From assembly GCA_964401575.1 (NCBI GenBank), contig CAYNZC010000004.1, forward strand, positions 3,819-67,818: DNA of 64,000 bases, given 5' to 3'. The stretch comes from an uncultured Verrucomicrobiota bacterium. Its GTDB lineage: Bacteria > Verrucomicrobiota > Verrucomicrobiia > Limisphaerales > UBA8199. Below, piece after piece: positions 3,985-56,034 of this stretch. Below the pieces are notes generated by a model, which ran no database searches, was not told the DNA's origin, and was given only the letters and a program-made list of their open reading frames with translations. Positions within the stretch are counted from its first letter, which is position 1; each line of letters starts with the position of its first letter. Both the position numbers and the translations under genes were made by a program.

Positions 3985-4415
3985 AGTTATCTCCTTTGTT
4001 GGTTATCTTGCCAGACGCTTGGGGTCCTCGTGTAGTTACAGCCGGCTTCATTCTTTTCTTAATGGGCGGGTGGTTTTGCTTGGCAATGCCGTTTGAACGG
4101 TCTAGGTATAGAGGTGTTCTTTGAAAGAGGCGGGTTTCTCCCGCCGCTATGTCACAGCCGGGCGTCAGGGAACCCTGTGAAAATCAGGGACGGTTGCGCC
4201 ACTGTAACGGGTTGCGAGTTCCCATCGCCACTGGAGGACACTCCGGGAAGGCGGGAGCGAGGTTAAAGCCCGAAGTCAGGATATCGGTCCGGTTGTGCTC
4301 GTCAGGCATGGTCATCCATTTCGTGAGATGTATCGCGATGGATGGGTCATGCCGCTTCTCCGACAAGAGAAGGATGAGGCCAGCCTTCTGCCGGTTGCAG
4401 AAGGGCCGCAGAATG

Positions 4416-17502: not shown

Positions 17503-19848
17503 ATGCGGCGTGTCTTTGCTCGCAAGACCATGAGAAGGTTCACCAGCTTGCGTGCCCGCCTCGTCGGGACTGTTTTCGTGGCCCTCGTGCCGGCGTGGGT
17601 GGTGATGTACCTTTTCGCTTACGACCCTCCCTGGATTCGTCTCGGCGCCGGAGCGCTTGCCCTGGGCGCCGCGTGGTTCGGGGGTGAAATGTTCATCATG
17701 CGCCAGGTGCGCGCGATACTCGAGGCGACGAAACTGCTCGCGAGCGGCGATCTTACCGTGCGCACCGGTCTTGAGCGGGAGCCGGGAGAGCTTGGAGATC
17801 TGGCTCGCTCTATCGACCAGATGGCGGCAGCTCTTCAGCGAAAAGACAGGAAGCAGGAGGACGCGCGGGATGACCTGAACCAGCAGGTCATGCGGCAGGC
17901 GGTCGTGAGCGCGCTTGGCCAGTTTGCCCTTCAGAGCAAGGACTTTTTGGCCCTGATGCACCAGGCGGTCATCATGGTAAGCCAGACTCTGCAGGTGGAA
18001 TATGTGTCGATCTTCGAGTTGGACGCCGAAGCGGACATGCTTTCGTTGCGCGCTTCCGTGGGGTGGCTTCCTGAGACAGCGAAGAATTTCCGGGTTCCTC
18101 TGGCCAGGGGATCTCTCTTGTCCTACGCCCTGTCCCGAGGAGAGCCGATATTGGTGAAGGACCTTCTGGATGACCCGAGGTTCGAGCCTGAAAAGTTTTT
18201 CCACGAGCACGGAGCTCGCAGTGCGGTCGTGGTTGCGATTCAGGCCGAGGAGGGGCTGTTTGGCCTCTTGCTGGCTCACACCGGCAATGCCAGCGAATTC
18301 AAGGAGAGCCAGGTGCAATTCATGCTTGGCATAGCGACGGTTCTGGCGATGGCTGTTGTGCGGCGCGGCACGGAGGCGGAGATGGAGAAACTGGCCACGT
18401 TCACCCGTCTCAATCCGGCACCGGCCCTGGAACTGAGCGAAAGCGGCTTGGTCACATACTCCAACGATGCGGCTAACAGGCTGGCGGCTTCATTCGGCGG
18501 TTGCTCTCCTGCGGAGTTGCTCCCGCTCGACTGCATGGCAATCGTGGAGGGATGCCTTTCCTCCGGGGAACCGCTGCTTGACCGGCAGGTTCTTCTGAAC
18601 GGACGCACGCTGTCGTGGTCTTTTCACCCCGTTCTCGCGAGCGGAACGGTGCATGTTTACATCGAGGAGTTGACGCACCGGTTGAATCTGGAAGCCCAGC
18701 TACGCCAGTCTCAAAAAATGGAATCTATCGGCCAGCTCGCCGCCGGCGTGGCACACGACTTTAATAACATGCTCACGATCATCCAGGGGCACTCGGGTCT
18801 GCTCCTGGTCAAACCGGACCTGGCGGAGGAGCACAGGGACAGTGTGCAGGCGGTTTACTTTGCTGCTGAGCGCGCCGCCGCGCTCACGCGGCAGTTACTC
18901 ATGTTTAGCCGCAAGAATGTGATGCAGCCCAAGCAGCTCGATATTGCCGAGGTGATCACCACCACCAGCAAGCTGCTCGAACGCCTGCTGGGAGAAAGCA
19001 TCCGGCTGGTCATGGATTGCGATCCGGATCTGCAAGCCGTCCGCGGGGATTCGGGCATGATCGAACAAGTCATCGTGAACCTCGCGGTCAATGCGCGCGA
19101 TGCCATGTCCCGGGGCGGTACACTGACCATCAGCGCGAATGCCGCGCAGATTGGCGCGGACTATGTTCAGTCGCATCCCGACGCGCGGGAGGGCAATTTC
19201 ATACGGCTCAGTGTGCAGGACACCGGCGCCGGGATTGATGCCGCAACGCTCCCGCACATTTTTGAGCCTTTCTTTACGACCAAGGAAGTCGGGAAGGGCA
19301 CGGGATTGGGCCTTGCAACGGTGTACGGGATTATCAAGCAGCACGATGGGTGGATTGACGTGCAATCCGAGGTGGGACGTGGCACGGTTTTTAGCGTCTT
19401 CTTCCCATCGTGGGCCCGAACCGGCTCTTTTGCCAGGGCGGAGCCGACTGCCGCGCCGGGGATGCGCCAAGGCAAGGAAACCATTCTCCTTGTCGAGGAT
19501 GAATTCGTGCTGCGTGAGCTTGCAAGAGCGATACTGAAAGATTGCGGCTACACGGTTATCGACGCCCCGTCCGGCCGTGAGGGTTTGAAGGTGTGGCAAA
19601 AGGAGAAGGATAAGATAGACCTTGTGCTCACGGACATGATGATGCCGGATGGCGTCTCAGGGATGGACCTGGCCAGCGAGGTGGTCAGGAGCAGGCCCGG
19701 GGTAAAAATCATCTTTGCCAGCGGCTACAGCATGGACGAGCTCGACCCGGAATTCCTCCGGAAGGGACATGGGCATTTCCTGCAAAAACCGTACACGCAC
19801 GTCACCCTCAGCAAGGCGGTGCGGGAGTGTCTCGACAACCAGTCATGA
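17503..19848 (+). CDS. Hybrid sensor histidine kinase / response regulator (HAMP-GAF-PAS-HisKA-HATPase-REC)
   Basis: Two N-terminal TM segments. H-box AAGVAHDFNNML. N/G boxes (NLAVNARDA, DTGAGI, GKGTGLGL). C-terminal receiver ILLVEDE...DLVLTDMMMPDG...K. Confidence 0.85.
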   Translation: MRRVFARKTMRRFTSLRARLVGTVFVALVPAWVVMYLFAYDPPWIRLGAGALALGAAWFGGEMFIMRQVRAILEATKLLASGDLTVRTGLEREPGELGDLARSIDQMAAALQRKDRKQEDARDDLNQQVMRQAVVSALGQFALQSKDFLALMHQAVIMVSQTLQVEYVSIFELDAEADMLSLRASVGWLPETAKNFRVPLARGSLLSYALSRGEPILVKDLLDDPRFEPEKFFHEHGARSAVVVAIQAEEGLFGLLLAHTGNASEFKESQVQFMLGIATVLAMAVVRRGTEAEMEKLATFTRLNPAPALELSESGLVTYSNDAANRLAASFGGCSPAELLPLDCMAIVEGCLSSGEPLLDRQVLLNGRTLSWSFHPVLASGTVHVYIEELTHRLNLEAQLRQSQKMESIGQLAAGVAHDFNNMLTIIQGHSGLLLVKPDLAEEHRDSVQAVYFAAERAAALTRQLLMFSRKNVMQPKQLDIAEVITTTSKLLERLLGESIRLVMDCDPDLQAVRGDSGMIEQVIVNLAVNARDAMSRGGTLTISANAAQIGADYVQSHPDAREGNFIRLSVQDTGAGIDAATLPHIFEPFFTTKEVGKGTGLGLATVYGIIKQHDGWIDVQSEVGRGTVFSVFFPSWARTGSFARAEPTAAPGMRQGKETILLVEDEFVLRELARAILKDCGYTVIDAPSGREGLKVWQKEKDKIDLVLTDMMMPDGVSGMDLASEVVRSRPGVKIIFASGYSMDELDPEFLRKGHGHFLQKPYTHVTLSKAVRECLDNQS

Positions 19849-19867: not shown

Positions 19868-21109
19868 ATGAAACAGCAAACTGAAAACGCGACAATTCAA
19901 GTTAAACAGCGCTCTCCAGGGCACAGCCGCCGATCCTTCCTTGCCAGGGTCGGAATAGCGTCGGCCGCGTTGGGGTTGGCACGCCCCACTGCTCCCGCTG
20001 CGGAGAAAGTAATCCAGGGATTCGAGACCGCTCCTGTGACCGACTCCGCTTCCGCCGGGTGGAAGCCGGTCTCGGATCGAAAGATCCGGATGGGCATTGT
20101 GGGTTACGGTGTTTGCAAGTTCGGCGCCGCGTTTAGTTTCCAGGATCATCCCAACGCGGAGATCGTGGCTGTGAGCGACCTGCTTCCGGATCGTTGCGCC
20201 GAGCTCGCGCAGGTGTGTCGGTGTCAAAAAACCTACCCCTCCTTCGACGAACTCTTGAAGGATGACCGCATCGAGGCTGTGTTTATCGCAACGGACGCCC
20301 CAAGTCACGCCCGCCAATGCATCGAAGCGCTCAAACGAGGCAAGCACGTGGCTACGGCTGTGCCGGCTGTGTTTGGCTCGATCGAAGACGCCCATGAACT
20401 GTATGAGGCTGTAAAAGCCAACAAACGCAACTACATGATGTTCGAGACGTCCACGTTTCATCGGGACCTCTTTGAAATGAGGGAGATTTTTGCCCGGGGC
20501 GGCTTTGGCAAGCTTGTGTATTCCGAAGGCGAGTATTACCACTACATGGCCGAGCCGATAGATTCCTACAAGGGCTGGCGTGTGGGTCTCCCGCCGCAAT
20601 ACTATCCTACTCACTCGAATGCCTATTATGTGGCCGTGGGTTCCGGCCGTTTCACGGCTGTTTCGTGCATGGGCATGCCAAGCGTGCTGCCGCATTTGCA
20701 ACCTGCGAATAATCCCTATAAAAACCCGTTCGGCACGGAAATCGCCAACTTCCGCACGAGCGAGGGCGGCATGTCTCGCATGGCCGTGAGTTGGGATACT
20801 CCCGGCTCCGGCGGAGAGATGGGGAGGATCCGCGGGCAAAAGGGCTCCTACTATGGCTCATATGAAGGGATAGAAAAACCTGGGGTGTTCCGACGACCGC
20901 CACTGCCGCCCAAGGTCGAGCCGGGAGGGCACGGGGGCTCGCATGGTTACCTCTGCAACGAGTTCCTTTTGTCCGTTCTTGAGAATCGCAGGCCGTTGGT
21001 GGATATCTCGATGGCGTTGAACCTCACGGTACCGGGTGTCATCGCCCACCAATCCGCGCTGAAGGATGGTGAGTGGATGAAGATTCCTGTGTTTGAGCCG
21101 GTTTCCTGA
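19868..21109 (+). CDS. Gfo/Idh/MocA family oxidoreductase with Tat signal
   Basis: SRRSFLARVGIASAALGLA twin-arginine leader. IRMGIVGYGVCKFG Rossmann motif. EKP-like region (ETSTFH). Confidence 0.8.
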   Translation: MKQQTENATIQVKQRSPGHSRRSFLARVGIASAALGLARPTAPAAEKVIQGFETAPVTDSASAGWKPVSDRKIRMGIVGYGVCKFGAAFSFQDHPNAEIVAVSDLLPDRCAELAQVCRCQKTYPSFDELLKDDRIEAVFIATDAPSHARQCIEALKRGKHVATAVPAVFGSIEDAHELYEAVKANKRNYMMFETSTFHRDLFEMREIFARGGFGKLVYSEGEYYHYMAEPIDSYKGWRVGLPPQYYPTHSNAYYVAVGSGRFTAVSCMGMPSVLPHLQPANNPYKNPFGTEIANFRTSEGGMSRMAVSWDTPGSGGEMGRIRGQKGSYYGSYEGIEKPGVFRRPPLPPKVEPGGHGGSHGYLCNEFLLSVLENRRPLVDISMALNLTVPGVIAHQSALKDGEWMKIPVFEPVS

Positions 21110-21112
21110 AAC

Positions 21113-21886
21113 TCACAGTCTGCCCAACAATCGGAGCAGCCCGTCCAGAATAGTGAGCGGATGCGGCGGACAACCCGGAATATACAGGTCCACCGGGAAA
21201 AGTTTGTCTGCTCCTCCCACTGTCTGGCCAGTGCCACTGAACGGCTCACCCGAGATGGCACAGGCGCCCACTGCAATTACCAGCTTCGGATCAGGTGTGG
21301 CCTCGTAGGTCTTGCGAAGCGCGAGTTCCATGTTGCGCGTTACTGGGCCTGTGATCAGGAGCCCGTCTGCGTGGCGCGGGGAGGCGACGAGTTGAATGCC
21401 AAATCGGCCAAGGTCCCACCCGATTGTGCCTAGAACGTTGATATCGGATTCGCACGCGTTGCATCCGCCCGCGCTCACCTGTCGCAGCCTGAGGGAGCGG
21501 CCGAAGAGCTTTCTGAGTTTTTCGTCCAGCGCCGCAGCCAGTCTCAGTTCCTCTTTGCCGGGTTCGCCGACAACCAGATCTCCCGCCTTGCGCACTGCCA
21601 TGCGGTGATCGCTGGTCTGCGTAAGCGCACCCGGCTCGCATGCCTGGACGCACGCCGCGCAAAAAGTGCAGCGGCCAAGATCGAGTCTTAGCAAGGGCGG
21701 AGCTCCCTGGAATGCCTCCGTGGGACAGACCTCGGCGCATTTGTGGCAGTCTGTGGGGCAGCGCGCAGATTCGAGCCTGAGGCTGCCGCCATGACGATCC
21801 GGGAGTGACGGCGCTTTGCCTTCGGGATAGGCCATGGTCTGGCAACCGCGCTGCAACCGATGGGCTAATGTGCTTAGGACAAACAT
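21113..21886 (-). CDS. Ferredoxin (2x[4Fe-4S]) fused to NuoB/HycG-like small subunit
   Basis: N-terminal CPTDCHKCAEVCP and CTFCAACVQACEP. C-terminal GGCNACE, SPRHADGLLITG, GACAISGEPF, IPGCPPHP (NuoB/HycG cluster-binding pattern). Confidence 0.85.
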   Translation of the reverse strand: MFVLSTLAHRLQRGCQTMAYPEGKAPSLPDRHGGSLRLESARCPTDCHKCAEVCPTEAFQGAPPLLRLDLGRCTFCAACVQACEPGALTQTSDHRMAVRKAGDLVVGEPGKEELRLAAALDEKLRKLFGRSLRLRQVSAGGCNACESDINVLGTIGWDLGRFGIQLVASPRHADGLLITGPVTRNMELALRKTYEATPDPKLVIAVGACAISGEPFSGTGQTVGGADKLFPVDLYIPGCPPHPLTILDGLLRLLGRL

Positions 21887-21888
21887 GG

Positions 21889-23364
21889 TTAAAGGTCAAA
21901 ACCGCAGTATGACAAGTTGAAGCTCTTGTTGCAGATAGGGAAGTCGTAAATGGCTTCCCCCCGCAGGGCCAGTGCCAATCCCGTCCAATTATGGAATGAC
22001 GGATCCGTCACCTTGTACCGCGCGAACCTGCCGGCGACATCCGTGATTGCCACGTGGCAGACTTCGCCGCGCCAGCCCTCGACTAATGCAACCGCGATGC
22101 TTTCGGCCGTTGGTCGGGCAATGGGCTCAAACGTCAGTCCTGCCGGAGCCGCGGCGAGTTGCTCAAGTATGAAATTGCCGGAGCGTTGGATTTCGAGCCA
22201 GCGAACGCGAGCGCGCGCAAAAACATCCCCTCCAGGCCAAACAGCGACCGGCGCCTGGGCAAAACGATACCAGCCGGCCGGGTGATCGTAACGCACATCG
22301 CGCACGAGGCCACAGGCCCGGGCGGCGGGCCCCACGAGCCCGATTTCCCCGGCCTGAGCGGACGAAACAACCCCGAGCCGCTCAAACCGGGCGCGGACAG
22401 AAGACGAGTCCCACAGCCATTCAGCCGCCTTTTCCACATCCTGCAATACGGGTTTAATCTGTTTTTCCAGCTCCGCGATCCGCGCCGGATCCATGTCTCT
22501 TCGGCAGCCGCCCGGAACTGCCAGCGCGCGTCCGAACCGATTGCCGCACAGGAGAGCTGTCATGTTCAGAAAATCCCCGCGCAATTTGCCGCATGCCGAT
22601 GACGTGGGCAGGAAGGCTACATCGTTGGCAAGCGCGCCGATGTCGCCTGTGTGATTTGCCAGCCGCTCCAATTCGAGGGCAATGGCCCGCAGCCATTGAG
22701 CCCGCAGCGGCGCCTCAGCTCCCGAGAGCGATTCGAGCACGGAAGCGTAAGCTGTGGCATGCGCGATGGAAGAGTCTCCCGCGAGAGTCTCCATGCGGGC
22801 GAGGGTGGCTTTGTGCGGGCCTCCTTCCAGCGAGGGCTCGATGCCGCGGTGCTGATAGCCCAAAGCGATTTCCAGGTGCAGCACCTCCTCGCCGGCGCAT
22901 TGAAAACGGAAATGACCCGGCTCGATCACTCCCGCATGCACAGGACCCACGGCGACTTCGTGGACTTCACCCCCGTTTGCGGTGAAGAAATCGCCGACTG
23001 CCGGGCCCGGCCCGTGATCGCGCCGGACAGGTTTGAGCCAGGGGTGGCCATCCGGGACGATTTGGCATTGCTCCCAGAGCTCGCGCTCGAACATGTGCGC
23101 CTGTGGAATCCTCGGGGTCAGAGACGGATAGGACTGCTTAAACGGCAGGCTGCGGCCAATCCGGAGAGAATTGGAGGAATCGAGGGCCAGCACTGAAACA
23201 ATGCTCACCCCATCGGCTCGAGGAATCCCGAACCAGGAACTGAGCCGGGCGCCAGCTAGCACCCGGCGCTCTGTGGCGTCCGCAAGGTCTGCAATGGAGA
23301 CTTCCGGCACCTCGCTCAAAGGCAGGCTGGAGCCGTTGTTCAACTCAATGTAGGGTGCGCTCAT
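21889..23364 (-). CDS. NuoC+NuoD / HycE-HyfG-like large subunit homologue lacking [NiFe] cysteine ligands
   Basis: GPVHAGVIEPGHFRFQCAGEEVLHLEIALGYQHRGIE is the classic group-4 large subunit/NuoD block. The ATG at 23364 overlaps the upstream stop (ATGA). The N-terminal ~130 aa are NuoC-like. Confidence 0.85.
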   Translation of the reverse strand: MSAPYIELNNGSSLPLSEVPEVSIADLADATERRVLAGARLSSWFGIPRADGVSIVSVLALDSSNSLRIGRSLPFKQSYPSLTPRIPQAHMFERELWEQCQIVPDGHPWLKPVRRDHGPGPAVGDFFTANGGEVHEVAVGPVHAGVIEPGHFRFQCAGEEVLHLEIALGYQHRGIEPSLEGGPHKATLARMETLAGDSSIAHATAYASVLESLSGAEAPLRAQWLRAIALELERLANHTGDIGALANDVAFLPTSSACGKLRGDFLNMTALLCGNRFGRALAVPGGCRRDMDPARIAELEKQIKPVLQDVEKAAEWLWDSSSVRARFERLGVVSSAQAGEIGLVGPAARACGLVRDVRYDHPAGWYRFAQAPVAVWPGGDVFARARVRWLEIQRSGNFILEQLAAAPAGLTFEPIARPTAESIAVALVEGWRGEVCHVAITDVAGRFARYKVTDPSFHNWTGLALALRGEAIYDFPICNKSFNLSYCGFDL

Positions 23365-24800
23365 GGAATTGGAATCAGGATTTGGGCGGCGCTGCTCCAG
23401 ACTTCCAGCAGGAAACGTGGGGTAAAAAGACCCAGCCAAAGCGATGCGGCCAGCAACAGGAGCGGAGGCGCGACGGTGCCGGCGGCTTCACGCAGGGAGG
23501 CAGTGTTCCACGCGGCTTTGCGCGGGCGGCCATCCACAATGGAGAAGACAAGGCGCGTCATGCCGATGAAAGCCAGGAGCAGGCAAACGAGGAAGATGGT
23601 GGCGGTGATGTACTGATGGGAACCCACGGCAGCGCGAAGGATTCCCAACTCGCTGAAAAACGGGCCGAACGGCGGACAGGCCGTTACCGCGAGCAGACCA
23701 ACAACAAAAATCCTGGAGGAAAGCGGCGTCACCCAGGTCATCCCGGCAACTTCGATGTTTGTACGTGCTCCGGCCGCGCGGCGGAGGTTGCCGGCGCTCA
23801 GGAACAACGCGCCCTTGGTCAGAACGTTGCTCCACACGTGAAAGAGAGCGGCGCCGAGGCCGCCGACGCCGATGGAGGCGCCGATCGTCAGGATTCCCAT
23901 GTGCTCGACGCTCGAGTAAGCGAGCATGCGTTTGAAGTCCGGCGTGCCCAGCAGGAACAGCGCGGCGATGATCATTGAGAAAAGACCGAGGCAAAGCAAT
24001 GTCAGGGACGCGATGCTTTCCAATCCGGCGGCTGACACAACAGCCCGAACACGCAGCAGGGCGACGAATGCCACGGTCGTCATTCCCCCGGCAAGCATCG
24101 CGCCGATCATGCCGGGCGCTTCCCCGTAAGCGTCCGGCTTCCATGTATGCATCGGCGCCAGGCCCATCTTGGTGCCGAAGCCGGCCAGCAGCAACACCCA
24201 CGCAGCCAGAAGCCATGGTTTGGAGAGAGACCCTGCGGCGGCCTTAAGGCCTGTGAACGTGAGGTCGCCCTCCCCGCCGCTGTGCATGGACGAATAACCG
24301 AGAAAGAACGCTCCCAGCAGCGAAAGGGCGATTCCGGTGCCGCCGACCAGCAGGTACTTCCATGTAGCTTCGAACGCTCGAGGGGTGCCGTTGAAGTGCA
24401 GCAGCGGGACTGTTGCCAGCGTCGCGCCTTCCGCGGCGACCCAAAGCAGCCCAAGGTGCTGTGCCAGCAGCGAAAGGGTGATGAGACCTGTGAGTGCCAG
24501 CAGTGTGGCAATGAAAACACGGTTTGGCCGCTCCTTCCTGGTTTTCAGATAAGACACGCCGTATCCCGCGCACGCGAGAAAAAGGATTGAAACCGCCGGA
24601 AGCACCGCGCGTGCGATGGGGTCAAAGCCCAGCCAAAGGGCCGGATTCCAGGTGGGCGGGTCCAGAAACATCCAGAGCGAGAGGCCCGAATGCGGCAGCG
24701 CAGCCGCCGGCAGAAGCCAGGGACGAGTGTCCTCTTTAGGCCAGACCAATGCGATGATTGCGGCCGCGAACGGGATGGCAATGAGAATGATTTCTTTCAC
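23361..24800 (-). CDS. HyfF / NuoN-M-like antiporter-type membrane subunit
   Basis: 479 aa and polytopic. GFGTKMGLAPMHTWKPDAYGEAP and LAYSSVEHMG proton-pumping subunit motifs. GTG start overlaps the upstream stop (GTGA). Confidence 0.85.
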   Translation of the reverse strand: MKEIILIAIPFAAAIIALVWPKEDTRPWLLPAAALPHSGLSLWMFLDPPTWNPALWLGFDPIARAVLPAVSILFLACAGYGVSYLKTRKERPNRVFIATLLALTGLITLSLLAQHLGLLWVAAEGATLATVPLLHFNGTPRAFEATWKYLLVGGTGIALSLLGAFFLGYSSMHSGGEGDLTFTGLKAAAGSLSKPWLLAAWVLLLAGFGTKMGLAPMHTWKPDAYGEAPGMIGAMLAGGMTTVAFVALLRVRAVVSAAGLESIASLTLLCLGLFSMIIAALFLLGTPDFKRMLAYSSVEHMGILTIGASIGVGGLGAALFHVWSNVLTKGALFLSAGNLRRAAGARTNIEVAGMTWVTPLSSRIFVVGLLAVTACPPFGPFFSELGILRAAVGSHQYITATIFLVCLLLAFIGMTRLVFSIVDGRPRKAAWNTASLREAAGTVAPPLLLLAASLWLGLFTPRFLLEVWSSAAQILIPIP

Positions 24801-25438
24801 TCGTGAAGACTCGTAAGTTTGCGCGTGTCCAGGGTGTCAAAGGCGCGCTGGATGCGATCCGCGATGATGCCGATCACAAACACGCCGACCGTGAGGTCAA
24901 GAAGGATGCCGGTTTCAACCACCAGGGGCATCGCATTGATGAGCAGCAGGCCGAACAGGTAAATGCCATTCTCGAGCAGGAGATAGCCGCAGACCTGCGA
25001 AATGGCCTTGGTCCTGCCGATGAGCAGCAGCAGTCCCGCCACCACCGTTGCCAGAGCGGCTGGGACCAGGAGGACGTTGGAATGCTCCGGTAACAGCGGC
25101 AACGCTCCCGAAAAAGCCACCGCGCCAGTCGTTGCGGCGGCCCCCAGTAACAGCGAGGGAACAAAGCCGATCAGCGGCTCTTCCTCACGGTCCACATTCG
25201 CCGAGCGCATGGCGCGCCGGAGCAGGTGCGGGATGAGAAAGCCCTTGATTCCGATGGTTCCCACCGCAACCAGCAGGCCCAGCAACGTCATGTGCGAGCC
25301 GATCAGCAGGGGGAGGATGCCAATCACCATTCCCTGCATTGCTGCTGCGCGGATGATCGAGGGAATCCTGCTGCTGCCAAGAGCAAGGAGATTCAGGCCC
25401 ATGGCCACGCCCGTAAATAGGTTCAGGGATGCATTCAT
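24797..25438 (-). CDS. HyfE-like small membrane subunit
   Basis: 213 aa, all TM helices. Its position between the NuoH-like and NuoN-like genes is as in hyf operons. ATG at 25438 overlaps the upstream stop (ATGA). Confidence 0.7.
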   Translation of the reverse strand: MNASLNLFTGVAMGLNLLALGSSRIPSIIRAAAMQGMVIGILPLLIGSHMTLLGLLVAVGTIGIKGFLIPHLLRRAMRSANVDREEEPLIGFVPSLLLGAAATTGAVAFSGALPLLPEHSNVLLVPAALATVVAGLLLLIGRTKAISQVCGYLLLENGIYLFGLLLINAMPLVVETGILLDLTVGVFVIGIIADRIQRAFDTLDTRKLTSLHE

Positions 25439-26358
25439 TGGAGTGAGGATCCTTTCCACGCCGCCAGCAGGCCAAACAGGCACAGCAGAAAGGCGGTGAT
25501 CAGGAGTAGCGGAACCCGCCGGAAAGCGAAACGGGCCAGCAACGACTCAACGGCGCCCACCCCCACCATGATGATTCCCAGGGCAAGCACCGTCACGGCC
25601 ATCCCTCCCAATCCGCCCAGGTGAAGGCCCGGTAGCACGGCATCCGCCAGCAGTACCGCAAAGAGCAGGAGTTTGATGGCGCTGCCGTGCAGAATTGCGG
25701 CAAATGGCGGGCCGCTATGGTCCAGGACCATGGCCTCATGCACCATCGTCAGTTCAAGATGGGTGTTGGGGTCGTCGAACGGAACCCGGCAGTTCTCGGC
25801 CAAAAGGACGATGAAAAGCCCGGCGCCAATCAGCATGACGCCCGAGCCGGCAAAGGGCGTAAGCATGCCGGACAGAGAAAGGCTGCCGGTGCGGACGCTC
25901 AGGGTAATCAGGGCTGTGATCAAGGCGGCTTCCGCCAGTACCGCGTAGGACACCTCGCGCGCGGTGCCCATGCCCTCGAAGGCGGAGCCGGTCTCCAGTG
26001 AGGCGCACGCGATGGCAAACCGTGCCACTGCGAGCAGGTAAATGAACAGGAAGGCATCGCCACGAAATGACACTGTCGATCCAAATGGCCCAATTGGCAG
26101 AAGCGCGGCCGCGCAGCTAATGGCGATCCATGCAATGGCCGGCCCGATGATGTGTCCGGGCGAGGCTGCCGTGCTGATGACCACTCCCTTGCGCCAGAGC
26201 CGCGCGAGGTCGTAATAAAGCTGCAGCACAGGCGGTCCTTTTCGACCGGCGACCCACGCCTTGACCTTGTTGATGATGCCTGGGCCTAATGGCGCCAGGG
26301 CCATCCAAAAGGCGACACGAACAACAAACTCGGCAATGGTGGAGAGTGTGGCGCTCAT
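25435..26358 (-). CDS. HyfC / NuoH-like membrane subunit
   Basis: 307 aa. KVKAWVAGRKGPPVLQLYYDLARLWRKG and ENCRVPFDDPNTHLELTMVHEAM (NuoH/HycD-like motifs). ATG at 26358 overlaps the hyfB-like stop. The upstream extension of ORF 25435-26847 was rejected. Confidence 0.85.
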   Translation of the reverse strand: MSATLSTIAEFVVRVAFWMALAPLGPGIINKVKAWVAGRKGPPVLQLYYDLARLWRKGVVISTAASPGHIIGPAIAWIAISCAAALLPIGPFGSTVSFRGDAFLFIYLLAVARFAIACASLETGSAFEGMGTAREVSYAVLAEAALITALITLSVRTGSLSLSGMLTPFAGSGVMLIGAGLFIVLLAENCRVPFDDPNTHLELTMVHEAMVLDHSGPPFAAILHGSAIKLLLFAVLLADAVLPGLHLGGLGGMAVTVLALGIIMVGVGAVESLLARFAFRRVPLLLITAFLLCLFGLLAAWKGSSLQ

Positions 26359-28319
26359 GGAAGTCCTTTGAACATGGCAGCTCCCATCCAAGTCAGGAGC
26401 GCAATGCCAACCAGGCCGAAAACCAGGTAGAGAATGTAGGCCTGCAGGCGCCCGTGCTGATAGCTCCGGACTGCGGTTGAAAACCGCATCGTGATATGTC
26501 CTATGGGGGTGATCACTCTTTCGAGCACTGTCTCGGGCGTGTGCTCGGATGAAAAAGCCGTTTGTGGAAACAATTCCGTTGGAGGAACACGGTGCCGCTC
26601 CGGTCGGAGTATCCACTCGAACCATGAAACAATTGTTGAAGCGAAAGAACCGGCTGTGTACTGCATCCGCGGGGTGGGAGCGGCATAGCCGCAATCCCAT
26701 GTGCCGAATCTGCGGGCGCCGTTTTTGCGGACACGCCCGGCAAGCACCCAGGATACCAGCAGAGCCAGGCCCAGAAAAGCCAGGTTCGCGGCGCCCAGCG
26801 TGGACAGGGACGGTTCCAAACGAATGGCGGACCATGATGGGTTCCATGCCCTCGCAACGGTTTGGAGAGCCGGCGCCAGGGCCAGCGGAGCCAGGCCGAC
26901 GAACGCGCAGATCGCGGCCAGCACCAGCATGGGGATGCGCATGGCCGACCCCGATTCGCAGGCCTTCCCTGCAGCGGCGGAGCGGGGCAGGCCCAGGAAC
27001 ACGATGCCCACGACCTTAACGAAGCAGGCGAGGGCAAGCGCCCCTGTGATCGCGAGCGAGATCGCAGCCGGAACCGCGGCCCATGCGGCAGGTCCGCGCG
27101 CATCGATCGCATCAAATAAACCGAGGTAGAGGAGCCATTCGCTGACGAAGCCGTTTAGCGGCGGCAGGCCGGATATGGCCGCCGCGCCCAGGGTGAATAG
27201 ACCGGCCGTCCATGGCATGGAACGCCATAGGCCTCCCAGGCTGCTCATGTGTCGCGTGCCTGTGGCGTGCAGAACAGACCCTGCTCCAAGAAATAGCAGC
27301 GCCTTGAAGACGCCGTGGTTCCAAACGTGCAAGAGCCCCCCGGCGATTGCCAGGGCGCCCCATTCGGGATTTCCGGATTGAGCAGCAATCGCCGCCAGGC
27401 CCACGCCGAGCAGGATGATGCCGATGTTCTCGACACTGTGGTAAGCCAGCAGACGTTTGAGGTCGTGCTGCCCAAGGGCGAAGGCGACGCCAAGAACCGA
27501 GCTGATTGCGCCGAGGGCAAGAATCGTCCACCCCGCGCCGGCCGGAAGCGGTAGCCAGCCTGAGAATCTGACAATACCGTAGATTCCCATCTTGATAGCC
27601 ACGCCGGACATGATTGCGGAGACATGGCTCGGCGCGTTTGCGTGGGCTGAAGGCAGCCAGATGTGAAGTGGAAACAGGCCCGCCTTCACCCCGAACCCGA
27701 ACAAAGCAAGCCAGAAGAGCGGCGCCAACGAGGCGTCTGTGAAAGGTCCAATGGTCCACGAACCTGTGCGCGCGGCAAGGAGCGCAAAAAAGGCAAACAG
27801 GCAAAGGGTGCCGGCATGGGAGGTGGCAAGGTAAATCCACCCGGCGAGGCGCACCTCGCGCCGCTGGCGATCCAGCGTGATCAGGAAGTAAGCACAGACA
27901 GCAAACGCTTCCCACGCAATGAGGAAGTGCAGTCCGTTTGCCGCCGTAAGAACCGCACCCATGGAAAAGAGCAGGCAACTCCACCACGCCCGGCCGGCGG
28001 GCGCCGAGCGCGGGTGCGCGCGGTCCGGCCAATACTCCATGGAGTAAAGAGCGCCGGCAGCCCCAATGGTCACGAGCAGAACCAGGAAAAAAGCGCTCAG
28101 CGCATCAAGCCGCAAATGCACAGGCTGAGACCCGAGGGTCAGGCACGCCATGAATTCCCAGGGTTGTCCTGAGAAGAGAACCATAGCAGCTCCGGCCAGG
28201 CCTGCAGCGGCGGCAATAAACGTGCAACCCAGCCACAGGCGCGGCGCGCGAAAGGCGGCAGCGATCCCGAAAACAAGAGCTGCGGCGGCAATAAGAAGAA
28301 AAGTGCCCGGGTTCATCAT
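26355..28319 (-). CDS. HyfB / NuoL-like antiporter-type membrane subunit
   Basis: 654 aa. FGFGVKAGLFPLHIWLPSAHANAPSHVSAIMSG and LAYHSVENIG motifs. C-terminal extension as in HyfB. Confidence 0.85.
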   Translation of the reverse strand: MMNPGTFLLIAAAALVFGIAAAFRAPRLWLGCTFIAAAAGLAGAAMVLFSGQPWEFMACLTLGSQPVHLRLDALSAFFLVLLVTIGAAGALYSMEYWPDRAHPRSAPAGRAWWSCLLFSMGAVLTAANGLHFLIAWEAFAVCAYFLITLDRQRREVRLAGWIYLATSHAGTLCLFAFFALLAARTGSWTIGPFTDASLAPLFWLALFGFGVKAGLFPLHIWLPSAHANAPSHVSAIMSGVAIKMGIYGIVRFSGWLPLPAGAGWTILALGAISSVLGVAFALGQHDLKRLLAYHSVENIGIILLGVGLAAIAAQSGNPEWGALAIAGGLLHVWNHGVFKALLFLGAGSVLHATGTRHMSSLGGLWRSMPWTAGLFTLGAAAISGLPPLNGFVSEWLLYLGLFDAIDARGPAAWAAVPAAISLAITGALALACFVKVVGIVFLGLPRSAAAGKACESGSAMRIPMLVLAAICAFVGLAPLALAPALQTVARAWNPSWSAIRLEPSLSTLGAANLAFLGLALLVSWVLAGRVRKNGARRFGTWDCGYAAPTPRMQYTAGSFASTIVSWFEWILRPERHRVPPTELFPQTAFSSEHTPETVLERVITPIGHITMRFSTAVRSYQHGRLQAYILYLVFGLVGIALLTWMGAAMFKGLP

Positions 28320-29032
28320 TTCTGGGGTAAATGCTCCGTCGTCGTCTTGAGCTCTTCCGCCGGGCAGGATTGACTGAGCGCTCGAAAGACCTCGGCATCC
28401 GGCGCGCCGTTTTTGATGGACTGACCGAAGGGCCCACGCGTAATTGAAGCGCTGAGCCCCGCGAGTATTTCCAGGTGCGACCGTGGAGTCGGGGCCATAA
28501 AGAACAGCAGGTAGCGCACGGGCAGGCCGTCCGGGGTCGCTTCTTCGAGTGGCATCGGGGCGCTAAGCATCATGAGCGAGATCAGGCCGTGATCTCGTCC
28601 AAGCGCCACCCTGGAGCGCAGGTGCGGCAGCGCAAAGTGTTTCCCCACAGGAGCCCAGGTGAGGGCGCCGGGCGATTGAACGCGGTGAACCAGCATCTGG
28701 CGTATCTGTGGTGTGAGGCCCCCAAGACGTTCGATGACTCCCGCCAGGGTTAATGGCACATCTGCGGGATGAACCTCCCGCCAGATGCCGCCGCGGCGCA
28801 GCATTGCCTCAATCGCGCTGCAGTTCTCCGGATTGTCCTGCGCGGCGGAAGAAAGGAATCCTGCCCGTGCAGCAAGCCCGCGTTCCGTTGCCCATCCCGC
28901 GACTTGAGAGCGATCAAAAAGAAGACGGCCACTGTCCTTGACGCAAGGCAGGGCGTCATGCCGGACCCACGCCATGACAACGGACTCTTCGACCCCCAGG
29001 GATTGTGCGACTTGTATGAGGTTGAGATGCAT
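28316..29032 (-). CDS. HTH (excisionase/MerR-like) + PTS EIIA type-2 domain protein, copy 1
   Basis: MHLNLIQVAQSLGVEESVVMAWVRHDALP HTH. EIIA-2 core ...VGKHFALPHLRSRV...GLPVRYLLFFMAP. The stop overlaps the hyfB-like ATG (ATGA at 28316-28319). Confidence 0.75.
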   Translation of the reverse strand: MHLNLIQVAQSLGVEESVVMAWVRHDALPCVKDSGRLLFDRSQVAGWATERGLAARAGFLSSAAQDNPENCSAIEAMLRRGGIWREVHPADVPLTLAGVIERLGGLTPQIRQMLVHRVQSPGALTWAPVGKHFALPHLRSRVALGRDHGLISLMMLSAPMPLEEATPDGLPVRYLLFFMAPTPRSHLEILAGLSASITRGPFGQSIKNGAPDAEVFRALSQSCPAEELKTTTEHLPQK

Positions 29033-29071
29033 GTGATGGAATTGCCCCGGTTTGCGGCGGTTGCAGATGGT

Positions 29072-29794
29072 TTATGCCGGCTGTATTGCTTCGTGTTTGC
29101 CGGAGCGCCCCTTGACGGAGGAATCCCACTCTGTCTGCAGGCGATCCAATTCGGCCAGAATGTCCTCACGGGAGGCCTGAATCTGGATGAGGCGCATGAA
29201 ATGCCGGTCCCGCAGCGCGTATGCGAGCCGAGACTGCAAATGGAGTTGGGCTTTGACGCGCGGGCTGATCAGTGTGAACAACGCGTGCACCGGTTGCCCG
29301 TCGAGCGCCCCGTAATCGACGGGTCGCTCAAGAAAGCAGAGGGCCATGAGCGGCTTTGACAGGTGCAGCACCACCGGGTTGCGCAAATGCGGCATCGCCA
29401 CCCCGTTGCCAAGCGCTGTGGGCTCGATTCTTTCGCGCGCGAGAAGAACCTGCAGCAGGAATTCGCGATCCACCTCCTCCGGCAGGCGGAGCATTTCGAC
29501 AATCTGCCTCAGGCAGGCGGCTGGATCCTGACCGGAAATCCGGTAGTAGATCCCGCCGTTCAGGAGCGCATCCTTAAGAGCAGGGGGAGCGTCCGATTCC
29601 GACTCGGGTTCCGCAAATATCGCGGGGGAAACGCGAAGCTTTTCAGCGGTAGCCCAGGCCAGCAACTCGGCGCGATTGAACCGATATTGGCCGCTGATCC
29701 GGTAACCCGGCAGCTTCCCATCCTCGATCCAACGATAGACGGTCTTCTCGGAAACCTCCAGAAGCGCCGCGACATCTTTTACATTCAGTTGCAT
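29072..29794 (-). CDS. HTH (excisionase/MerR-like) + PTS EIIA type-2 domain protein, copy 2
   Basis: ATG at 29794: MQLNVKDVAALLEVSEKTVYRWIEDGKLPGYR HTH. EIIA-2 core LGNGVAMPHLRNPVV...DGQPVHALFTLISP. Paralogous to copy 1. Confidence 0.75.
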   Translation of the reverse strand: MQLNVKDVAALLEVSEKTVYRWIEDGKLPGYRISGQYRFNRAELLAWATAEKLRVSPAIFAEPESESDAPPALKDALLNGGIYYRISGQDPAACLRQIVEMLRLPEEVDREFLLQVLLARERIEPTALGNGVAMPHLRNPVVLHLSKPLMALCFLERPVDYGALDGQPVHALFTLISPRVKAQLHLQSRLAYALRDRHFMRLIQIQASREDILAELDRLQTEWDSSVKGRSGKHEAIQPA

Positions 29795-29825
29795 GCAGCC
29801 ACATTCACTGACCAACTGTCCCGGA

Positions 29826-29842
29826 TTGGACAATTTTGGACA
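29826..29842 (-). promoter_or_regulatory. Direct repeat TTGGACA x2 with 10-bp phasing upstream of the HTH-EIIA / hyf-like operon
   Basis: ttggaca at 29826-29832 and at 29836-29842, 32-48 nt upstream of the ATG at 29794. An AT-rich segment with TTGACT (minus strand) lies further upstream. Function not demonstrated. Confidence 0.25.
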
Positions 29843-29923
29843 TGGTTCATAATTATGGGAAAAAAGTCAAGAGCCGCCATCCCCAAAGCGTTCGCTTTCT
29901 GGCTTCAAACAGAGGGCCTCGCC

Positions 29924-42065: not shown

Positions 42066-44762
42066 TTAGCCCGCATCGGGCACCTCAATGACATCTCCGT
42101 GACGGAGCCAAAAGGGCGGGGGGGGCTTGTTTGGGGAGCAATCCAAAACGAAAACGCTCTTGTTCATTGTGGCAGGATCAGTGCGCGTCACTTTGACCGT
42201 GGACAAGTCGGAGGTGGACAACAGCAGACCTGATCTTGTGAGGACTGCCTCGATCCACATTGTCTGGGGAACGCTGACATTGACACCACCGGGGCCCAGA
42301 CGAGTTTGATCTGCCTGAGAAGCGGGGTCGTATTGTGAACAAAGGGTTAGGTCGTGCCGCTGTCCTTTGACGATGATACGCACTACTCGCGCCCAGCACT
42401 TGTTCAGAGCGTAGTGTGTTTTGAAGCGGAAACCTTGCCAGGGATCGCCCAGTCTGTGTTCTGTCTCCGGTATTATGACTATATCGCCCCATCTGAGAGG
42501 CACATCTTTGGAACAATCGCCTGAGTCCAGAATGTCTGCCAGGTCCACCTTGATGGTTTTCCAACCTTCCTGGGCGGTGGTCAGGCGCTGTATTTGAATG
42601 TTCGAGAGATCGGGGAACGGCCACGCGGTGCCGCTGGTAATCAAATCGAGGCGTTGCATGGTGTTTGCAGCGGATTCCGGTGTGTTGGAAAGAAACCCAT
42701 ACGCCACCCCCAGCACTTCGATCAGTGTGAATTGATTCCAGTCGTTGGTGCCTTTTTCGAGAATTACTTGAGGCCCCTTGCCCGGGCGGGAAACGCTTAT
42801 GCCGTTCGGATTGGGCAGCACATCCAGCGCCCCGTGCTTGCGCAGCAGGTCCGCAATCTCGGATTGCTGGGCAGAGGTAATTCCGGGAACGAGCGGAGGC
42901 CCATTGCCTACAACTAGCCTGCGAAATGGGCTGGGCGTCACGTTTCCTACGGTGTCCACCCCGGGTGCGGGAGAATAGGTGGTCCATGTGTAGGGTGACA
43001 TGCCCTTTGTGAAAGCCAGCGGTGTGTAACCCTTGTCATCGCGAGCGTTTGGATCCGCTTCAGCGGCAAGGAGCGCGGCAACGACTTCCCGCTGCCTGGC
43101 AGGCGCCGAGGAGAGCATTACCGCGTAATGCAGCGGGGTGAGGCCCCATTTATCACGAGCGTTAATCGCGGCTCCACGGCGGACGAGCTCCTGCATTTGT
43201 GGAACAAGGCCGGACATGACGGCATAATGCAGGGGTGTGAGGCCCGTCACAGTGGTGGCATGAATGTTTGCTCCCTCATCCAGAATGACCTTGCAGATGG
43301 AAGGCTGGCCGAGGCTGAGATGCAGCGAAGTCGCGCCATACGAATTCGTTGCATTCACATTTGCGCCCGCCTGCAGAAGCCGTAGCGCGGCTTTCTCATG
43401 ACCTCCAGCTACGGAGGCCATGAGCGGCGAGTTCCTGCCCTGGGTGGGTGGATTCGGGTCCGCCTTATGTTTCAAAAGGATTGCCACCAGTTCAGGAATT
43501 GCATTGGTATTCTGCTTTTCAAAGACCAATTCCAAGGGAGATTTAACAGTGACCCCCCTCTTTTGCGGGACATTCGGATCAGCTCCGTTTTCCAGCAGCA
43601 GTTGCATTAGGGCCGTATTGGCGAAGAGAATCGCCGGGTGCAGCGGTGAGTCCAGATTGTTCGTGTCCGTCCGGGGAGTATTTGGATCGGCCTTGTGCCG
43701 CAGCAGCATTTGGGCGCTTTCCACGTGGTCATTGAGAACCGCCCTCATGAGGGGGGTGCAACCAACTTCGTCCCGGGCATTTACGTCCGCACCGCGACTG
43801 ACAAGCATGCCGGCCATTTCCACGTGGCGGCCTGCGCAGGCGAGGTGCAAGGGAGAATCCCCACCCTTTGAACGAGCGTTGACGCGAGCTTTGTTGTCCA
43901 GTAGGAGCGTGGCGAACGCGGAGTGTCCATCCTCGGCGACTTTGTGAAGTGGAGTAAGTCCATTGTTGTCCCCCGCGTTGGGATCGGCGCCGGCGTCAAG
44001 TAGCGTCCTGCCGATCGCGGCGAATCCTTTCCCGGCGGCATGGTGCAGCGGTGTGAGGCCACCGGAATCTCTTGCCCCGACGTCCGCCTTGTATTTGATA
44101 AGGAGCTCCGCGATTGCGTTGTGGCCCCCGGCTGCTGCCAGATGCAGGGGCGTTTCCCGGCCAGCGCGCCGAGCGTCAACCAGCGCCCCGTTTTCAAGCA
44201 AAAAACGGGCTACTGTTAAGTGTCCCGCGTTCGCGGCAATGTGAAGAGGCGTACCTCCCGATGTAGCAGCATTGATCAGGTCGGGGCTGTTTTGGATTAG
44301 AACGCGGATACGCATTATTTCGCCTTCTTCGGCGGAAGTAACCATGGCCGGCCCCGGCTGAGTCTTTGGCTCCACGGTTGGGGATGTGATCGTCGTTCCG
44401 AGTGCTGCGAGGTTCTGTGTGCTGAGCGTTGCCACGGGGCCGATGTCCGGGAACTCCCTGACGATCCGGTTGTAGTGCGCGGCTGCTTCGTTGGTTTTGC
44501 CCTGCTTTCGGTGGCACTCGCCGAGACGGTAGATTGCAGTGGCTGCCAGCCTGCGGTCGTGGTCGAACTGATTGACAACCGTCCTGTAGGCTTGCATTGC
44601 CGCTTCCAGGTTATTGTTCGCCTCCTCCTCGAAGAGCCCTTGCTGAAGCAGGGCGCTCATGCTGTCTGTGTCCGCCGGTGCAGGTGCGGCATGTGTCTGC
44701 CCCGGAAGACTCACTATCAGCAGCACTCCCCCGGTCAAAACAAGCAGTAAAGGGATCTTCAT
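42066..44762 (-). CDS. Secreted TPR + ankyrin-repeat (~12) + 2x SLBB-like beta-grasp domain protein
   Basis: ATG at 44762 gives MKIPLLLVLTGGVLLIVSLPGQTHA, a signal peptide. TPR-like AAMQAYRTVV...AIYRLGECHRKQGK. Many G.TPLH.A...GH......LL..GA..N repeats. C-terminal ...VPLRWGDIVIIPE and ...FWLRHGDVIEVPD match the SLBB pattern. Confidence 0.8.
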   Translation of the reverse strand: MKIPLLLVLTGGVLLIVSLPGQTHAAPAPADTDSMSALLQQGLFEEEANNNLEAAMQAYRTVVNQFDHDRRLAATAIYRLGECHRKQGKTNEAAAHYNRIVREFPDIGPVATLSTQNLAALGTTITSPTVEPKTQPGPAMVTSAEEGEIMRIRVLIQNSPDLINAATSGGTPLHIAANAGHLTVARFLLENGALVDARRAGRETPLHLAAAGGHNAIAELLIKYKADVGARDSGGLTPLHHAAGKGFAAIGRTLLDAGADPNAGDNNGLTPLHKVAEDGHSAFATLLLDNKARVNARSKGGDSPLHLACAGRHVEMAGMLVSRGADVNARDEVGCTPLMRAVLNDHVESAQMLLRHKADPNTPRTDTNNLDSPLHPAILFANTALMQLLLENGADPNVPQKRGVTVKSPLELVFEKQNTNAIPELVAILLKHKADPNPPTQGRNSPLMASVAGGHEKAALRLLQAGANVNATNSYGATSLHLSLGQPSICKVILDEGANIHATTVTGLTPLHYAVMSGLVPQMQELVRRGAAINARDKWGLTPLHYAVMLSSAPARQREVVAALLAAEADPNARDDKGYTPLAFTKGMSPYTWTTYSPAPGVDTVGNVTPSPFRRLVVGNGPPLVPGITSAQQSEIADLLRKHGALDVLPNPNGISVSRPGKGPQVILEKGTNDWNQFTLIEVLGVAYGFLSNTPESAANTMQRLDLITSGTAWPFPDLSNIQIQRLTTAQEGWKTIKVDLADILDSGDCSKDVPLRWGDIVIIPETEHRLGDPWQGFRFKTHYALNKCWARVVRIIVKGQRHDLTLCSQYDPASQADQTRLGPGGVNVSVPQTMWIEAVLTRSGLLLSTSDLSTVKVTRTDPATMNKSVFVLDCSPNKPPPPFWLRHGDVIEVPDAG

Positions 44763-44832
44763 ATATCGAGAATGGTTGAGCAGACAAAACTTTTTGTCAT
44801 GGAATTGTAAATTGCATTCGGCTTTCCATCGT

Positions 44833-56031: not shown

Positions 56032-56034
56032 TCC

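Follow-up and report, generated by a model that had tools for sequence, protein, structure and literature searches.

The 64-kb stretch of DNA analysed in this study (hereafter the window; contig CAYNZC010000004.1 of an uncultured Verrucomicrobiota bacterium) carries an operon of eight minus-strand genes, running from position 29794 to 21113 in the order E1-E2-ehrABCDLS, which on balance probably encodes a ferredoxin-linked, ion-translocating membrane oxidoreductase that is no canonical [NiFe] hydrogenase and is accompanied by regulators of the nitrogen phosphotransferase system (PTS-Ntr) type. The locus is a typical, intact member of the already known family of energy-converting hydrogenase related (Ehr) and Hyq complexes in a verrucomicrobial genome and does not represent a new kind of system. 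Such complexes are widespread among nitrifiers, Geobacter, methanotrophs and many bacteria of the Planctomycetes-Verrucomicrobia-Chlamydiae (PVC) group; they stand at the evolutionary junction of membrane hydrogenases and complex I, and their substrate has been elusive for approximately 20 years.

Coordinates were obtained by reading the minus strand, and domains were assigned by means of Pfam and NCBIfam. Relatives were surveyed in a scan of species-representative genomes, which yielded at least 598 matching stretches, some of which may be true hydrogenases. Most locus counts given below rest on approximately 85 related loci (designated L followed by a number). All of the best 80 loci were of the Ehr type; they span more than 12 phyla and are found in Verrucomicrobiota, Planctomycetota, Spirochaetota, Geobacter relatives, Acidobacteriota, Gemmatimonadota, Chlamydiota, Lentisphaerae, Cloacimonadota, Omnitrophota, Actinomycetota, and others. 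The nearest relatives of the window cluster belong to the Verrucomicrobiota, a PVC phylum, in line with the PVC setting given in a first-pass annotation made from the sequence alone.

The packing of the eight genes described in that annotation was recovered base for base on the minus strand, with ATGA overlaps at four junctions (28316-28319, where the E2 stop overlaps the ehrA start, 26355-26358, 25435-25438, and 23361-23364), a GTGA overlap between ehrC and ehrD (24797-24800), a gap of 2 nt between ehrL and ehrS (21887-21888), and a spacing of 39 nt between E1 and E2. The order A-B-C-D-L-S was found in every one of the related loci, and the 4-nt overlaps are also present in the complete verrucomicrobial genome L001, the proteins of which are just 64-71% identical, indicating that the tight packing is conserved rather than accidental. 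The start of E1 was placed at ATG 29794 and not at TTG 29833, because approximately 30 orthologues begin with MQL.V(K/R)D at the corresponding position.

Large subunit, iron-sulfur arm and membrane subunits

The large subunit EhrL is closest to HycE of Escherichia coli (phmmer, 1.7e-42; also the best match in the PDB), and its predicted structure, with a mean local confidence (pLDDT) of 91, matched HycE in Foldseek with a template modelling (TM) score of 0.87 (7Z0S chain E), followed by E. coli NuoCD. In the alignment with HycE, the L1 motif RvCGICgfAH corresponds to tLAGDSsiAH and the L2 motif DPCYSCTDR to NLSYCGFDL; CGIC is replaced by AGDS and CYSC by SYCG, so that all four Ni-Fe cysteines are out of register. 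Comparison with HycE, MbhL, and Nqo4 likewise revealed the loss of both L1 and both L2 cysteines. The L1 motif of EhrL reads A195-G-D197-S198 and the L2 motif, located at the C-terminus, S485-Y-C-G488-F-D-L491, an invariant polar set of Asp197, Ser/Thr198, Ser485, and Gly488 taking the places of the four cysteines. The last residue of the chain coincides with the HycI cleavage position and with the end of mature HycE, so that EhrL needs no endopeptidase. The hydrogenase proton-relay motif GPVHAGVIE148PGHFRF is retained, as is the HycE fold.

The replacements are shared throughout the family. The signature [A/S]-G-D-[S/T] together with N-L-S-Y-[C/A/S]-G-x-D-L-COOH was present in all of the approximately 85 genomic loci, covering more than 12 phyla. 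When clusters of 50% identity were sampled by 95 full-length representatives, nearly every one of these had [A/S/C]-G-D-[S/T] where CGxC would stand and NKSFNLSY[C/S/A]G.DL-COOH where LCYSCxDR would stand; only four distant proteins kept CGxC/CYxC. An alignment of 39 diverse members, which are 32-53% identical to EhrL, contained 43 invariant columns, among them H143, E148, D197, N479, K480, S481, S485, Y486, G488, D490, and L491. In a neighbour-joining tree, the four proteins with intact cysteines formed a clade of their own (24 of 40 bootstraps) and the window EhrL was placed among the cysteine-less proteins, not inside a functional metal-binding clade as it would be if the first-pass reading were wrong. 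By its identity of 52-55% and the shared signature, it goes with the Ehr loci from Geobacter, Geomonas, and Methylacidiphilales rather than with functional hydrogenases. The earlier description of a 'degenerate catalytic subunit' needs correction: the Ni-Fe cysteines are lost, but as judged from the alignments EhrL is not degenerate, because an alternative signature is invariant across phyla.

For the small subunit EhrS, the best match was MbhJ (9.6e-35), followed by HycG (7.9e-32). Its proximal cluster has four cysteines with a CxxC of the hydrogenase type, GGCNACE aligning with GSCNGCD, and the GACA and GCPP motifs also align to MbhJ and HycG. The N-terminal half contains two ferredoxin motifs, CxxxCxxCxxxCP and CxxCxxCxxxC, with eight cysteines, and all three [4Fe-4S] sites are intact in the window protein. 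According to published criteria (PMC8165549), the proximal site differs both from complex I, with its tandem CC, and from the membrane-bound sulfane reductase MBS, with its three-cysteine site. The cysteine patterns were kept in 63-72 of approximately 78-80 relatives searched by tblastn across the loci. As a separate observation, all proximal-cluster cysteines were replaced in 5-7 of approximately 80 EhrS homologues (e.g., GGSGAEEAD, VGAEAISG, and IPGWPPHP), and some family members may have lost this cluster.

The subunit assignments of the first-pass annotation were backed by Pfam and NCBIfam matches for all six structural proteins. EhrA scored 548 bits against the HyfB model NF005086, below the cutoff of 667, and matched HycC (1.4e-60) and MbhH (3.9e-52); its relay, comprising the Glu of transmembrane helix (TM) 5 and the Lys of TM7, TM8, and TM12, aligns with that of MbhH. 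The same Lys/Glu motifs can be read in the unaligned sequence of EhrD, which reached 160 bits against Proton_antipo_M and 237 bits against the HyfF models (under cutoff). EhrB and EhrC were assigned by family matches, the latter by a full-length but sub-cutoff alignment to the HyfE model NF008556 (77 bits) and a weak Oxidored_q2 match.

This pattern of conservation bears directly on the idea that the cluster is an evolutionary relic, i.e., a dead hydrogenase operon under relaxed selection, as in one paper that deems the Geobacter Ehr non-functional because its Ni-Fe site is missing (PMC13194489). Both the relic explanation and the non-functional view are contradicted by the conservation data: eight intact reading frames with conserved 4-nt overlaps, the invariant EhrL columns and a signature kept across phyla, the retention of Fe-S ligands and relay residues, and the sheer number of matching stretches in species-representative genomes. 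Ehr proteins have moreover been detected in Geobacter proteomes (PMC7894505). A relic is accordingly regarded as extremely improbable.

HTH-PtsN-like regulators and the candidate operator

E1 and E2, which the first-pass annotation had treated as two incidental EIIA genes, turned out to be helix-turn-helix (HTH) PtsN-like regulators and a conserved component of the cluster. Both combine an N-terminal HTH_17 domain (excisionase/MerR-like) with a C-terminal PTS_EIIA_2 domain, scoring 61.8 and 74.3 bits, respectively, in E1, and 23.3 (under cutoff) and 31.3 bits in E2. The phospho-histidine of E1 lies within the motif GNGVAMPH(136); a profile built from E1 homologues retrieved PtsN of E. coli (1A6J; 4e-18) and aligned the phospho-histidine of its GIAIPH motif. 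In Foldseek, the AlphaFold2 model of E1 (pLDDT 90.5) yielded PtsN structures as top matches (TM score of approximately 0.8), and the next matches were cytoplasmic regulatory domains of SLC4 anion exchangers. Histidine and HTH are conserved in approximately 45 orthologues across phyla. E2 is 48% identical to the gene directly upstream of ehrA in L001, and an E2-type gene adjoins ehrA in all Opitutae-like loci. In 54 loci, ehrA was complete and the upstream DNA long enough to be evaluated; an E gene abuts ehrA in 29 of them and lies within 4.5 kb in 10 more. Overall, this gene type stands next to ehrA or an ehrA paralogue in approximately 72% of evaluable loci. The reciprocal look-up, starting from three E1 homologues on long contigs, landed on E-A-B-C-D-L-S clusters in all three cases. 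No mention of EIIA or PtsN linked to Ehr was found in the literature searched, and no PTS genes were found among the window open reading frames (ORFs) examined.

Upstream of E1, a promoter-like -35 hexamer precedes a weak -10 and a putative operator with tandem TGTCC repeats (Table 1); the -35/-10 pair was missed by a generic scan because the -10 matches the consensus in only half of its positions. Alignment of the regions upstream of E1-type genes revealed tandem TGTC[C/T] repeats 10 bp apart, following TTGAC[A/T] and a weak -10. TTGAC[AT] stands at an equal distance from the repeats in L001, L027, L028, and L038; TTGAC[AC] is also present upstream in L032, L035, and L077. Ten of 32 loci had the repeat pair in front of an E1-type gene, compared with 0.02 expected and a maximum of one in 300 shuffles, and the pair recurs across phyla; it sits at -48/-38 from the ATG in five of these ten loci, including the window, and at nearby offsets in most of the others. 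TGTCC alone was observed 24 times in these regions (3.8 +/- 1.8 expected), and the TGTCY-N5-6-TGTCY pair at 29828-29842 is the only one in the window. No such pair was found in the regions upstream of E2. A search for sigma-54 promoters (TGGCAC-N5-TTGCW, up to two mismatches) gave 41 matches against 39.5 expected, none of them upstream of E1, and an Rfam scan detected no element in the ehr cluster. At the other end of the operon, the ehrS stop and the stop of a convergent plus-strand Gfo/Idh/MocA gene (ending at 21109) are 3 nt apart within 21109-21115, leaving no space for an intergenic terminator 3' of ehrS.

In relatives, the space between the E1- and E2-type genes is occupied by a SulP+STAS gene or by a second HyfB-like gene. 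A SulP+STAS gene sits among the regulator genes in L001 (2448-4256), L020 (2348-4255), L011 (48-1778), and L078 (2573-4372); DauA was its top-scoring model, the cutoff being passed for the general sulP model only. Loci with a second HyfB-like paralogue (A') ahead of the ehr cluster are L014 (2340-4286), L012, L016-L018, L039, L042, L044, L051, L054, and L068; the gene is seen in Opitutae-like loci, in Geobacter (as E-ehrA-1), and in Holophagaceae. E and A' make up a separable unit of two genes in the Geobacter-like loci, in some cases with divergent transcription (L051, L054, and L068). The window has neither insertion, E1 directly preceding E2. Two further peculiarities of relatives were recorded. 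In loci of the Geobacter type, the E-A' unit is separated from ehrA by a gene for a MazF/PemK-like toxin (L039, 4231-4587, minus strand; L054; L068). In three loci (L009, 2250-9986; L051, 13260-20578; L092, 13613-17440), a second, more divergent Ehr/Hyq-like cluster adjoins the first, its large subunit being 37-40% identical to the window EhrL and carrying SGD[ST].

The inserted genes (L001, L011, L020, L078, and others) and the separability of E-A' would fit a complex whose main task is the regulated transport of ions or anions (Mrp-, DAB- or NDH-1MS-like), in which the Fe-S arm gates or powers cation/proton exchange or energises a SulP anion transporter as its partner, and E1 and E2 are cytoplasmic regulatory subunits of EIIA fold rather than transcription factors. 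The resemblance of the E1 fold to SLC4 regulatory domains points in the same direction, as do the stronger conservation of E1 relative to the enzyme subunits (65% versus 35-59% identity in L027) and the role in pH homeostasis suggested for the Methylacidiphilum ehr genes (PMC6688271). However, SulP was found nowhere in the window, no carbonic-anhydrase-like subunit is present, and the three conserved [4Fe-4S] sites argue for genuine electron throughput. The DNA-binding HTH of E1 is conserved, as is the repeat element upstream of its gene, and the overlap of E2 with ehrA is no proof of a subunit role, because in Hyq the gene of a small, unrelated HTH regulator, HyqR, likewise shares bases with the first structural gene (4 nt in Rhizobium Hyq). 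A transport machine of this kind is therefore considered rather unlikely.

Proposed mechanism, alternatives and genomic context

According to the oxidoreductase reading, a low-potential donor, most simply ferredoxin, would dock on the ferredoxin domain of EhrS, and electrons would pass through the three [4Fe-4S] clusters into the remodelled EhrL pocket at the membrane interface, where proton-coupled redox chemistry could drive the translocation of H+ or Na+. Menaquinone would be the simplest candidate acceptor; it is available as a possible acceptor because the window encodes MqnC, which implies menaquinone synthesis by the futalosine route. The complex might also work in the opposite direction and reduce ferredoxin at the expense of the ion gradient. 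Transcription would begin at the promoter upstream of E1, with the tandem TGTCC repeats in its -10/+1 region; E1 and E2 probably bind these repeats and, via the conserved histidine, probably tie ehr expression to a putative phosphorylation by a nitrogen-PTS-type relay. Regulator and candidate operator point to physiological control by carbon/nitrogen or energy status. Experimental handles provided by the analysis are D197, S/T198, S485, and the C-terminal ...DL of EhrL, the regulator with its PtsN-type histidine, and the tandem TGTCC candidate operator, and direct tests are conceivable in hosts that have been cultivated, among them Geobacter, Methylacidiphilum, and Opitutaceae.

Several points weigh against this proposal. 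The quinone ligands of complex I are missing from EhrL (Thermus Nqo4 His38 corresponds to Ile147 and Tyr87 to Gly196), so that any quinone site would need a different construction. No Ehr has a demonstrated substrate, donor or ion, and the acceptor is a guess. On the regulatory side, the -10 is weak, and the generic promoter/terminator scan of 20.5-30.8 kb gave the same counts as shuffled sequence. Between 12 and 15 of the 54 loci lack an E gene, although at least three of the 15 are apparently detection failures. Finally, deletion of the Azorhizobium hyq operon shifts H2 evolution 10- to 15-fold (PMC3357923), and the presence of hypF and hypCDE in the window keeps some H2 chemistry alive as an alternative.

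In its explicit form, this alternative assumes a non-canonical, Hyq-like 'endo-hydrogenase', the cysteine-less pocket of which activates or evolves H2 (H2:quinone or ferredoxin:H+), perhaps with an unusual cofactor. The Azorhizobium hyqRBCEFGI operon has the same architecture of one regulator and six structural genes, its deletion raises H2 evolution (PMC2650096, PMC3357923), and Rhizobium HyqG, 37% identical, shares the SGDS / SYSGHDL-COOH signature; the hydrogenase Glu relay in EhrL and the hydrogenase-type proximal cluster in EhrS would also be compatible with it. Maturation genes are encoded in the window (Table 1) and abut the ehr cluster in one relative, a metagenome-assembled genome of the Methylacidiphilales (L090, 191-2615), in which hypC-hypD-hypE lie directly upstream of E1-ehrABCDLS and EhrL is cysteine-less. 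On the other hand, none of the four metal-binding cysteines is left in any Ehr member, and of the approximately 85 loci, L090 alone has hyp genes no farther than 10 kb from ehr. The window ORFs examined included no hydrogenase structural gene and neither hypA nor hypB. The evidence for Hyq is genetic, its authors calling a Ni-Fe site 'uncertain, if not unlikely' and having had no cell-free assay (PMC3357923), and H2 did not raise Ehr expression in Nitrospira moscoviensis (PMC12342949). We consider the H2-active form rather improbable. As hypF and hypCDE are present, the organism makes the Fe(CN)2CO precursor, which probably serves a hydrogenase encoded elsewhere.

A somewhat more doubtful idea is that the invariant Asp-Ser/Thr-Ser-Glu pocket of the Ehr/Hyq family represents a catalytic or metal site of a new kind, perhaps for cysteine-free H2 chemistry, at which the Azorhizobium genetics hint, and that the HTH-EIIA proteins are dual-purpose PTS-Ntr repressors that dock on HyfB-like or SulP partners. 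If true, the latter would give the EIIA-fold regulatory domain of the SLC4 anion exchangers a counterpart in bacteria.

The remaining alternative, in which the cluster is the membrane module of a formate-oxidising complex of formate dehydrogenase (FDH) and Ehr, similar to formate hydrogenlyase but with another terminal acceptor, was proposed for Margulisbacteria and Saganbacteria (PMC6349859), and in Geobacter all Ehr subunits reached their highest abundance during growth on formate (PMC7894505). It is very unlikely for this locus: as the first-pass annotation had stated, the cluster contains no FDH, HyfA/HyfD or endopeptidase gene, and no FDH, HycB/HyfA, HycI endopeptidase or NuoEF was found among the window ORFs examined. 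Neither did a conserved electron-donor module (FDH or NuoEF) recur among the neighbours of the approximately 85 loci, the recurrent genes being generic histidine kinases and ABC ATPases.

Table 1. Genes and predicted regulatory elements of the ehr locus and further genes of the window referred to in the text (positions within the 64-kb window).
Feature	Position	Strand	Description
-35 hexamer TTGACT	29865-29870	minus	promoter-like, inferred; 17 nt upstream of the weak -10
-10 AACCAT	29842-29847	minus	weak, matches 3/6
Putative operator	29817-29843	minus	overlaps the -10/+1 region
Direct TGTCC(A) repeats	29838-29842, 29828-29832	minus	10 bp apart
Inverted GGACA	29817-29821	minus	part of the putative operator
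E1	29072-29794	minus	ATG start, 240 aa; HTH_17 + PtsN-like EIIA regulator
E2	28316-29032	minus	238 aa; diverged E1 paralogue, HTH_17-like + EIIA
ehrA	26355-28319	minus	654 aa; HyfB/HycC/MbhH-like antiporter-like subunit, Pfam Proton_antipo_M
ehrB	25435-26358	minus	307 aa; NuoH/HyfC-like, Pfam NADHdh 94.5 bits
ehrC	24797-25438	minus	213 aa; HyfE-like (NuoJ/K-like)
ehrD	23361-24800	minus	GTG start, 479 aa; HyfF/NuoM/N-like antiporter-like subunit
ehrL	21889-23364	minus	491 aa; fused NuoC+NuoD-like large subunit, Complex1_30kDa + Complex1_49kDa
ehrS	21113-21886	minus	257 aa; 2x Fer4 + Oxidored_q6, ferredoxin domain fused to NuoB-like domain
hypF	48211-50559	plus	[NiFe]-hydrogenase maturation; hyp genes ~25 kb from ehr
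mqnC	50574-51767	plus	MqnC, cyclic dehypoxanthinyl futalosine synthase, above curated NCBIfam cutoff; between hypF and a DUF7133 protein
hypC-hypD-hypE	54662-57096	plus	hypC/hypD overlap 4 nt

The genes flanking the operon are unrelated to it and are not conserved in relatives; they encode a Gfo/Idh/MocA oxidoreductase, a hybrid histidine kinase, a PduO-type adenosyltransferase, citrate synthase, and SucCD. The kinase gene (HAMP-GAF-HisKA-HATPase-REC; 17503-19848, plus strand) converges on the ehr operon from two genes away. Fifteen loci have histidine-kinase genes near ehr, perhaps for no other reason than that such genes are common. Elsewhere in the window, the only Rfam match was a cobalamin riboswitch (4115-4306, plus strand; 75.9 bits), which precedes an ORF that ends at 5519 and has no Pfam match, followed by a gene for an N_methyl/DUF1559 protein (5522-6343). 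A gene for BrxL, the Lon-like protease of bacteriophage exclusion (BREX) systems, was found at the very start of the window (23-2002, plus strand), and the remainder of the system may be encoded immediately beyond its edge. A protein of 934 aa (42066-44870, minus strand) has TPR and numerous ankyrin repeats, which is unusual for a bacterium.

Comparison with known systems

Ehr was defined in Geobacter (G. sulfurreducens GSU0739-45), and ehrABCDLS was also noted in Methylacidiphilum (PMC7894505, PMC6688271). The Ehr clusters of Geobacter sulfurreducens, Methylacidiphilum, and Nitrospira have the same six genes in the same order and a large subunit without both CxxC pairs, and the claim that the window encodes an Ehr-type complex is borne out by its ehrABCDLS order and a HycE-like large subunit lacking the four Ni-Fe cysteines. 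The loci differ in their regulatory part: the window has two tandem HTH-EIIA genes and one ehrA, whereas Geobacter has E-ehrA-1 plus ehrA-2, and many Opitutae-like relatives have a second ehrA paralogue or SulP between the regulators. That such complexes have no established substrate, as also claimed initially, agrees with papers from 2023-2025 in which the function of Ehr is called unknown (PMC10284858, PMC12342949), with the reservation that the sister system Hyq has a genetic, non-biochemical link to H2 recycling (PMC2650096, PMC3357923).

In the Hyq operon of Azorhizobium caulinodans (hyqRBCEFGI), a system shared with other diazotrophs, HyqG lacks the CxxC pairs as well, and it is during N2 fixation that the deletion exerts its effect on H2 evolution (PMC2650096, PMC3357923). 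Like those of the window cluster, the genes of Hyq, one for a regulator and six structural, overlap tightly, and the signature of the HyqG encoded on a Rhizobium plasmid is as in Ehr. The window cluster is nevertheless not a member of Hyq, the large-subunit signature being the only criterion shared. HyqI (177 aa) has no ferredoxin domain, whereas EhrS has one, and the hyq operon is driven by NifA and sigma-54 (PMC2650096), whereas the window cluster has no sigma-54 promoter. HyqR, a 98-aa XRE-type HTH protein, was considered as a homologue of E1 and rejected, since the two show no similarity.

E. coli formate hydrogenlyase (Hyc; 7Z0S) and hydrogenase-4 (Hyf) provide the best matches for EhrL (HycE) and EhrA (HycC) and share the fused NuoC-NuoD large subunit. 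In contrast to Hyc/Hyf, Ehr lacks the Ni-Fe ligands, FdhF, HycB/HyfA, and HycI; a HycF-like ferredoxin is fused to the HycG-like subunit, and EhrL has no cleavable C-terminal extension. Of the features of group 4 [NiFe] hydrogenases, the CxxC-type proximal cluster was found, but the four Ni-Fe cysteines were absent here as in the approximately 85 relatives. The Pyrococcus membrane-bound complexes MBH and MBS (6CFW, 6U8Y) resemble Ehr in being ferredoxin-linked and in having three [4Fe-4S] clusters as well as antiporter-like subunits; the best match for EhrS is MbhJ, and MbhH is the second-best for EhrA. MBH has four Ni-Fe cysteines, whereas Ehr has none in register, and Ehr lacks an Mrp-type Na+/H+ module. 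MBS combines a three-cysteine proximal cluster with two vestigial cysteines (PMC8165549), whereas Ehr has a four-cysteine proximal cluster and no in-register cysteine in the L subunit, which rules against an identity as MBS/Mbx sulfane reductase. With complex I (Nuo/Nqo), Ehr shares the ancestry of the Q-module and P-module, NuoCD being the second structural match to EhrL, but it is without NuoEFG, the tandem-Cys ligation of N2, and Tyr87/His38, and has just two antiporter-like subunits.

Among the regulators, E1 has the same fold as PtsN (EIIA-Ntr), with TM scores of approximately 0.8 to 3URR, 4GQX, and 1A6J and the histidine of GIAIPH aligned and conserved; against the PtsN equivalog model TIGR01419 it scored 54.4 bits (cutoff 138.7). 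It differs from PtsN by an additional N-terminal HTH_17 domain and a long C-terminal helix, and it is encoded in the ehr operon rather than beside rpoN.

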